From Escherichia coli (lineage in GTDB: Bacteria; Pseudomonadota; Gammaproteobacteria; Enterobacterales; Enterobacteriaceae): DNA of 603 bases. A model generated the notes under the pieces. That model was not told where the DNA came from, made no database searches, and was given only the letters and a program-made list of their open reading frames with translations. The stretch is from assembly GCF_003334255.1 (NCBI RefSeq), contig NZ_QOWU01000211.1; one strand, given 5' to 3'. Both the position numbers and the translations under genes were made by a program. Positions 1-603 of the stretch are shown one piece after another; the stretch's first letter is position 1; the number at the start of each line of letters is the position of its first letter.

Positions 1-117
1 TCTCAGTGGGCGGCAATAGGCGTGCTGGGGAGTCTGCTGTTTGGGCTGCTGACATATCTGACTAACCTGTATTTCAAGATTAAAGAAGACCGGCGTAAGG
101 CGGCGCGGGGAGAGTAG
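1..117 (+). CDS. essD: Phage class II pinholin, S21 family (lysis protein S), 3' portion only; 5' end lies upstream of the window
   Basis: Frame +1 reads through from base 1 with no stop until TAG 115-117, giving [38 protein letters not shown]. This is a hydrophobic helix ([17 protein letters not shown]) followed by a short, strongly basic/acidic tail. From memory it matches, nearly residue for residue, the C-terminus of phage 21 S21 pinholin and the E. coli prophage EssD/EssQ proteins; that is a recalled match, not a database hit. The symbol is a family-level label: the same protein is called essD, essQ or S depending on the prophage. Confidence 0.85.
107..114 (+). promoter_or_regulatory. 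Shine-Dalgarno / ribosome binding site for the downstream ORF, embedded in the last codons of the holin
   Basis: GGGGAGAG at 107-114 is purine-rich and complementary to the 16S rRNA anti-SD core (GGAG). It lies about 6-9 nt upstream of ATG 121. The holin stop TAG (115-117) sits between the SD and the start, the classic layout for translational coupling. Confidence 0.6.
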
Positions 118-120
118 ACG

Positions 121-603
121 ATGAATAAACAATACGAACTGGTTGTTAAAGGGATAAATAATTACCCGGATAAGATTACTGTTACTGTAGCGCTGGAAAC
201 GGGTGGGTATACGTCACTGTTGTTGCCAAATGTGGTGATTGATCTTGATCGTGTTGAAGGTGCCCCGCTGGAGTTTTACGAAGCTGAGGCGAAAAAACAG
301 GCGAAGCAGTTTTTCATGGATATTGCTGCCGGGTTATGTGAAGGGGATGAACAGTCACAGGAAAAGTGCCTTTGTTCCGAAGATCGGTATACCATACAAA
401 TTAACAATGCATATAACACGATACTGTCAGAAAAAGATGATATCGAATCACGCATTGAAAAACTGGAGAATTGCGTCGTTGAACTGAATAAAAAACTGTC
501 GACGCTGATGCCTTCTGAAGATGCAAAAAAACGCCGCGATGAGCAGTTCGCGGCGTTTTACGATTATTGCATTGAAGTTACTCGCAGGAATTTTGTGAAG
601 GCT
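121..603 (+). CDS. Hypothetical soluble prophage protein with a C-terminal coiled coil, located between holin and the expected endolysin; possibly YdfR/DUF1327-like; 3' end beyond the window
   Basis: ATG at 121 follows a good SD and opens a frame +1 ORF with no stop through base 603 (161 codons seen): MNKQYELVVKGINNYPDKITVTVALETGGYTSLLLPNVVIDLDRVEGAPLEFYEAEAKKQAKQFFMDIAAGLCEGDEQSQEKCLCSEDRYTIQINNAYNTILSEKDDIESRIEKLENCVVELNKKLSTLMPSEDAKKRRDEQFAAFYDYCIEVTRRNFVKA. It uses typical enterobacterial codons (CTG, GAA, AAA, CGC) and has no in-frame stop over 483 nt. It has no hydrophobic stretch long enough for a TMD or signal peptide, and nothing resembling a lysozyme catalytic region. The YdfR/DUF1327 assignment rests on recalled gene order in Qin (essQ-ydfR-rrrQ) and a vaguely remembered N-terminal similarity; it is unverified. 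Confidence 0.8.
   Translation, partial: MNKQYELVVKGINNYPDKITVTVALETGGYTSLLLPNVVIDLDRVEGAPLEFYEAEAKKQAKQFFMDIAAGLCEGDEQSQEKCLCSEDRYTIQINNAYNTILSEKDDIESRIEKLENCVVELNKKLSTLMPSEDAKKRRDEQFAAFYDYCIEVTRRNFVKA

Follow-up and report, generated by a model that had tools for sequence, protein, structure and literature searches.

A tight pinholin-DUF1327 gene junction in an Stx-phage-like prophage of Escherichia coli: a compact late-operon boundary with probably loose translational coupling

Translational coupling in its classical form, as in trpE-trpD and galT-galK, consists in the termination and reinitiation of ribosomes at adjacent cistrons, and phage morons are independently transcribed inserts in late operons. 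The closest known locus to the one treated here is the essQ-ydfR-rrrQ-rzpQ cluster of the Qin prophage in E. coli K-12, in which a holin of the same family is followed, 4 nt past its stop codon, by a DUF1327/YdfR gene. As at the present locus, the Shine-Dalgarno (SD) sequence of that gene (AGAGGAGAG) lies within the terminal codons of the holin, and an R21-like lysozyme and a spanin gene are found downstream. The S21-R21-Rz genes of phage 21 and DLP12 (essD-rrrD-rzpD) are likewise tightly packed and share with the present locus a pinholin family with a C-terminus ending in KAARGE, terminal holin codons that form the SD of the next gene, and an R21-type SAR endolysin (matches to PDB 3hde and 4zpu). 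A cassette of pinholin and SAR endolysin has been described as typical of Stx phages (PMC8136144, PMC10462455), and a gene between these two is not discussed in either of these Stx-phage comparisons. Having an R21/RrrD-like lysozyme and a class II holin, the locus analysed here therefore represents an Stx-typical cassette with one additional gene between S and R. The locus as such is already known, thousands of E. coli genomes having it in their annotation, K-12 with its Qin prophage included.

The window, meaning the whole 603-nt stretch of E. coli DNA that was analysed, carries the following features; coordinates marked L001 refer to a 12.6-kb locus that contains the junction.

1-117, plus strand: 3' half of a class II holin gene (phage 21 S-type, pinholin), with the second transmembrane segment, the charged C-terminal tail and the stop (frame 1 translation)
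107-114, plus strand: SD sequence GGGGAGAG for the DUF1327 gene, made of the holin's terminal Arg-Gly-Glu codons CGG-GGA-GAG
115-117, plus strand: holin stop TAG, preceded by the codons 106-108 CGG (R), 109-111 GGA (G) and 112-114 GAG (E) (direct reading)
118-120, plus strand: spacer ACG, 3 nt, between the holin stop and the next start (direct reading)
121-603, plus strand: first 161 of the 169 codons of a DUF1327/YdfR-family gene, whose ORF leaves the window and ends 27 nt past its end
121-360, plus strand: DUF1327 domain, aa 1-80, which is the part conserved across the family and consists of one helix and three beta strands (Pfam PF07041, AF2 model)
442-603, plus strand: variable C-terminal helical-hairpin module, aa 108-168 (AF2 helices 108-129 and 133-168, low confidence; modular alignment)
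578-603, minus strand: last 8 codons and stop of a convergent 86-aa ORF (L001 6578-6838), an annotated CDS (phrog_2572, E=3.6e-50)

An earlier note on this DNA had placed the holin stop at 115-117, the SD at 107-114 and the next start at ATG 121, with a gap of 3 nt between stop and start, and all of these coordinates are correct by direct reading. ATG 121-123 is the earliest possible start past the holin stop, and Met1 of the DUF1327 protein is invariant in the family alignment. The GGAG core of the SD (109-112) stands 8 nt 5' of ATG 121, also by direct reading. The duplex energy of GGGGAGAG with the anti-SD is -8.1 kcal/mol, which is the best value in the window, and an equally good and suitably spaced SD is found at 5.2% of the 249 plus-strand ATGs and at 3.4% of all plus-strand positions in L001. 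Based on this rarity and on the duplex energy, the SD goes beyond what would be expected by chance. The gap of 3 nt between the holin and the DUF1327 gene is the smallest non-overlapping gap in the late region of L001.

The window was matched in 2,908 of 5,426 complete E. coli genomes. Its identity to a prophage of E. coli STEC17-183 is 99.8%, and that to PhiR12 phages is 99.3%. The gene order is Q, a nanS-p-like esterase, DUF1378, DUF826, the holin, the DUF1327 gene, the convergent 86-aa ORF, the lysozyme, two small ORFs, an Rz-like spanin and the terminase, with 319 nt, including the convergent ORF, between the DUF1327 gene and the R21-like SAR endolysin. Related viral loci from IMG/VR, 78 in number, derive from the closest 80 of 329 relatives and are not independent samples. 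In 77 of them a class II holin precedes the ATG, with a spacer of 3 nt in 20 loci and of 4 nt in 57; in the single exception the upstream ORF is frameshifted. The junction, taken as 120 nt, occurs in 35 distinct variants, among them essQ-ydfR of K-12 Qin with its 4-nt spacer, and across these variants the terminal codons of the holin are nearly always CGG or AGA, followed by GGA and then GAG.

The complete holin has 71 aa (L001 5902-6117) and matches Pfam PF04971 ('Bacteriophage P21 holin S') with E=8e-33 over residues 5-67 (model positions 1-63 of 64), in addition to PHROG holin families. No family matching the holin or the DUF1327 protein was found in NCBIfam. Read by eye, the N-terminus M-Y-Q-M-E-K of the holin may represent a dual-start motif. 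The partner of this pinholin is an R21-type lysozyme that matches R21 (3hde) and RrrD (4zpu), the N-terminal region included, and that is predicted to be a SAR endolysin; its N-terminus is rich in Gly, Ala and Ser. In DLP12 the endolysin itself occupies the position behind the holin, with a TAATG overlap. In another E. coli prophage (L091) the same holin end abuts, across a 3-nt spacer, a 217-aa protein that has no DUF1327 domain and is in that respect unrelated. Together with the Salmonella and tail-module homologues described below, these arrangements show the tight spacing to be a property of the holin 3' end, which serves as a generic slot, and not of the DUF1327 gene.

A pR'-like promoter (TTGACA-18-CATAAT, 11 of 12 consensus matches) is located at the extreme end of Q in locus L002, about 3.7 kb upstream of the junction. 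A tR'-like hairpin with a T-run follows about 40 nt downstream of this site in L002, giving the classical pR'/tR' layout. A scan of the plus strand for sigma-70 promoters, which is a crude consensus search that weak or alternative-sigma promoters would escape, returned no other promoter-like site from the pR'-like site to the junction, nor any in L001 5000-8700, and no plus-strand terminator-like site was found between L001 6121 and 6950. As the gap is only 3 nt and the stretch back to pR' is free of recognisable promoters, the DUF1327 gene is expected to lie on the same transcript as the holin. Judged from these sequence signals, its co-transcription with the late lysis genes is well supported. 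The earlier note had proposed that the downstream protein is made from the same late transcript without a promoter of its own. This proposal holds up well, since 3 nt leave no room for a promoter, the scan is negative back to pR', and K-12 ydfR is nearly silent: RNA-seq of K-12 in ordinary growth yielded almost no ydfR reads, and ydfR is described as co-transcribed with its neighbours (PMC13232886). For the one exception that the note had allowed for, an internal promoter further upstream, no candidate emerged either, the consensus scan having given no plus-strand site between pR' and the junction, holin gene included. In the literature on essQ/rrrQ, on PhiR12 and on Ribo-seq of induced O157 lysogens, nothing usable was found on expression across the junction.

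Several terminator-like hairpins lie between pR' and the gene and, by analogy with lambdoid biology, transcription that reaches the lysis genes should need Q antitermination. One terminator-like hairpin with a 12-bp stem and a T-run is located between the DUF826 and holin genes (L001/L002 5836-5864, plus strand), where it would stop transcription that is not antiterminated before the lysis genes. In the stem of this hairpin, a G-T to G-C change distinguishes the two loci.

With respect to translation, the stop lies close to the start, as in coupled gene pairs (TAG 115-117, ATG 121), and both genes would share one transcript according to the consensus scan. A structure masking the ribosome binding site, which is what enforces coupling in many cases, is absent from the junction. 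The fold of the 120-nt junction is no more stable than that of shuffled sequences (z=+0.72), and its minimum free energy structure leaves both GGAG and ATG unpaired. A consensus fold of 16 diverse variants (RNAalifold) has no pairs at the SD, spacer or start columns and a consensus energy of -4.3 kcal/mol. Opening the stretch from -17 to +12 around the ATG would cost 12.2 kcal/mol, which is at the background median (207 positions, 13.3 +/- 4.9), and an Rfam scan of L001 5000-8700 at E<=1 returned just two sub-threshold chance matches, both away from the junction. The further suggestion, that synthesis of the downstream protein probably keeps a ratio set by translation of the holin, did not find such backing, given a strong and well-spaced SD, no masking structure, and homologues that have their own GGAG-type SD without tight spacing.

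The explanation that best accounts for these observations, and to which we give a probability of roughly 70%, is a compact intercistronic junction in a late lysis operon that depends on Q and belongs to a lambdoid (Stx-phage-like) prophage, with loose coupling between the two genes. A Q-antiterminated pR' transcript would carry nanS-p, DUF1378, DUF826, the pinholin S, the DUF1327 gene, the SAR endolysin and Rz. The DUF1327 gene would have no promoter of its own and be transcribed along with the holin, presumably late. Ribosomes would start at ATG 121 by way of the GGAG-type SD that doubles as the three terminal codons of the holin. Since this SD is strong, well spaced and unmasked, mostly ordinary SD-driven initiation is expected, and ribosomes terminating 3 nt upstream may add some re-initiation or local unfolding, probably the lesser share next to de novo initiation. 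Coupling would then be loose and not an obligatory fixed ratio. Some re-initiation by holin ribosomes is plausible, and a fixed stoichiometry of DUF1327 protein and holin is possible. The junction itself is a routine compact operon junction, an instance of textbook compaction that is genuine and conserved. Two points could be held against loose coupling and mere compaction. An opening energy of 12 kcal/mol is not negligible, and unfolding by holin ribosomes could contribute more than assumed here. In addition, the spacing of 3-4 nt is invariant wherever the gene follows a holin in E. coli, and selection for true coupling could be the cause.

Alternatively, ribosomes that finish the holin could be the main source of initiation at ATG 121, and DUF1327 protein would then be made in fixed proportion to holin by strict termination-reinitiation. 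We regard this as unlikely, with enough in its favor to carry some weight. The stop-start distance of 3-4 nt recurs in 77 of the 78 loci and in Qin, the Qin chain is tight throughout (essQ, 4 nt, ydfR, ATGA overlap, rrrQ, 4-nt overlap, rzpQ), and the ribosome binding site sits in moderately structured, GC-rich mRNA, as reflected by the 12.2 kcal/mol. However, the SD is strong and correctly spaced and no conserved hairpin masks it, and homologues elsewhere are not tied to a closely preceding stop. In Salmonella enterica (L085 2183-3007), a 168-aa DUF1327 homologue with 74% identity follows a holin of the unrelated family PF16080 after a spacer of 18 nt that contains its own SD CAGGAGAG (GGAGAG). 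Stand-alone, distant DUF1327-domain proteins of 72-76 aa are also encoded outside lysis cassettes, in lambdoid prophages where their genes separate the tail genes M (PF05939) and L (PF05100) (L087 511-966, L088 446-992, L089 2501-2986), and these have their own GGAG-type SD, 19-65 nt past the upstream gene.

The homologous loci differ further in their neighborhoods. A ParE-toxin/HTH pair, located between Q and the holin, is a further feature of the Salmonella locus. Each of the DUF1327 genes in the tail modules is followed by a small convergent ORF of 70-99 aa on the reverse strand, and a convergent layout of two genes is thus recurrent. BLASTP among these small convergent ORFs, from the tail modules and from the locus of the window, gave no alignment, and they belong to different PHROGs or to none. 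The 86-aa ORF of the window's locus shares 53 nt with the 3' end of the DUF1327 gene, has a good SD (GAGGTG), and runs against a late operon that is otherwise unidirectional. The same ORF is found alongside the 169-, 183- and 211-aa variants of the DUF1327 protein and the Salmonella homologue. No identity was obtained for it in Pfam, NCBIfam or PADLOC, and PhiR12 records carry the mere label 'DUF1823'.

Behind the convergent ORF, outside the window, the start of the R21-like endolysin (L001 6930-6952) has no SD (ATAAATATCC-ATG, anti-SD energy +0.6 kcal/mol). Its leader is AU-rich and very open (opening energy 1.8 kcal/mol) and is kept in all loci. With 319 nt between the DUF1327 gene and the endolysin here, as opposed to an ATGA overlap in Qin, translation of the endolysin apparently needs neither an SD nor coupling. 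Between the convergent ORF and the endolysin (L001 6861-6900, plus strand) lies TTGACATACCCTGGCCAGTGCCCACCACTGGCGGGGTGA, which was not flagged in the promoter scan. This element may resemble the lambda pL/OL1 region (TTGACA...ACCACTGGCGGTGATA).

The DUF1327 protein itself matches PF07041 over residues 1-80 (E=1.4e-34; the model has 93 positions), and the AF2 model of this part has a pLDDT of about 70-90. Over its full length it matches phrog_2091 (E=1.2e-84), with further PHROGs 1085, 2735 and 406, and its protein cluster P0001 has 446 member sequences. The family consists of a conserved N-domain of about 80 aa and strongly mosaic C-terminal modules, and its members are 92 to 385 aa long. At window positions 349-370, where the N-domain ends, megablast matches to Stx phages stop, which marks this point as a mosaic breakpoint. 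A permutation of the domains is seen in L091 (1600-3403), where the order is holin, 3-nt spacer, 217-aa protein, a 75-aa DUF1327-like gene and lysozyme. The 217-aa protein lacks the N-domain and is made up of C-terminal modules known from long DUF1327 proteins, and its N-terminus is the counterpart of the module at 442-603. In PADLOC, no credible defence-system match was obtained for the DUF1327 protein, for the convergent ORFs or for the 217-aa protein.

The functional data that were found all concern K-12 YdfR. Its residues 1-72 bind the N-terminal half of RNase E, as reported from bacterial two-hybrid and co-purification experiments, and YdfR co-purifies with RNA, its over-expression having changed the transcriptome little (PMC13232886). 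The N-domain of the window's protein is only about 40% identical to that of K-12 YdfR. A role of DUF1327 proteins in RNA metabolism during late infection is a lead held with low confidence. Perhaps, though this is quite doubtful, the DUF1327 domain is a late-expressed, dsRBD-like factor binding RNA and RNase E that was put in the post-holin slot for delivery together with the pinholin. The argument for such a factor is a weak one and combines the reported interaction of YdfR with RNase E and RNA (PMC13232886) with the invariant junction. If it were true, the protein could, for instance, shield late or lysis mRNAs from RNase E or tune the timing of lysis, and the linkage to the holin would be functionally meaningful beyond compaction.

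It could also be argued that the DUF1327 gene is a moron, that is, an insert driven by a promoter of its own within the holin gene and expressed in lysogens independently of the late operon. Relative to the S-R arrangement of phage 21/DLP12 the gene is indeed an insertion, the DUF1327 domain family is inserted between the tail genes M and L as well, and PMC13232886 cites database evidence that the Qin cluster is up-regulated under cold stress. Nevertheless, we consider a moron very improbable. There is no plus-strand promoter-like site from pR' to the gene and no plus-strand terminator-like hairpin after the gene and before R, growing K-12 gave almost no ydfR reads (PMC13232886), and with an SD inside the holin codons the gene is physically fused to the holin 3' end.

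Similarly little credit can be given to the view that the downstream ORF is a decayed pseudogene without a functional product. This view derives from RefSeq, where PGAP annotates only L001 6121-6366 and marks it as a pseudo DUF1327 gene ('incomplete, missing C-terminus'), although the 169-aa ORF is intact and recurrent. The highly mosaic C-terminal parts of the family would fit decay, but an ORF intact at 169 aa, with an end-to-end match to phrog_2091, 446 members in its cluster and the same 169-aa protein in PhiR12 phage records, which list laboratory E. coli strains as hosts, argues against it, and the mosaic C-terminus has probably misled the PGAP annotation into an artefactual flag. Finally, read-through of the TAG to give a membrane-anchored holin-Thr-DUF1327 fusion, suggested by the shared frame of both ORFs in the window with only TAG ACG between them, has a negligible chance and was rejected, as the in-frame relation is not conserved and is lost in the majority with 4-nt spacers (57 of 78 loci, where the frames differ), most loci use TAA, and no read-through signal is known or evident.

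By itself the junction has little weight, as a short gap and an SD inside the upstream gene are standard in phage late operons. It does fix the start codon and, presumably, the expression class (late and Q-dependent) of a widespread uncharacterised protein family, which sits between pinholin and SAR endolysin in most Stx-type phages. It also follows that the RefSeq pseudogene flag on the 169-aa variant is probably wrong. If expression were locked to that of the holin, this would be a first clue to a role in lysis control.

Among known mechanisms, the junction comes closest to classical coupling, with which it shares a distance of a few nt between stop and start, an SD inside the upstream coding sequence and, as predicted, one transcript. 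It differs from classical coupling in that the masking structure that often enforces dependence is absent. Like a moron, the DUF1327 gene is an accessory gene inserted between conserved late genes, with relatives inserted between tail genes M and L, but the scan detected neither a promoter nor a terminator belonging to it, and its ribosome binding site is fused to the coding end of the holin. Among known loci, phage 21 and DLP12 have the endolysin itself in the slot behind the holin, whereas the window's phage has the DUF1327 gene there and an endolysin without SD. A final difference concerns Qin. YdfR of K-12 has 103 aa, is 39% identical and carries another, short C-terminus, with an ATGA overlap between the ydfR stop and the start of the lysozyme, whereas the protein of the window's phage has 169 aa with a helical C-terminal module and is separated from the lysozyme by a 319-nt segment that harbors the convergent ORF.
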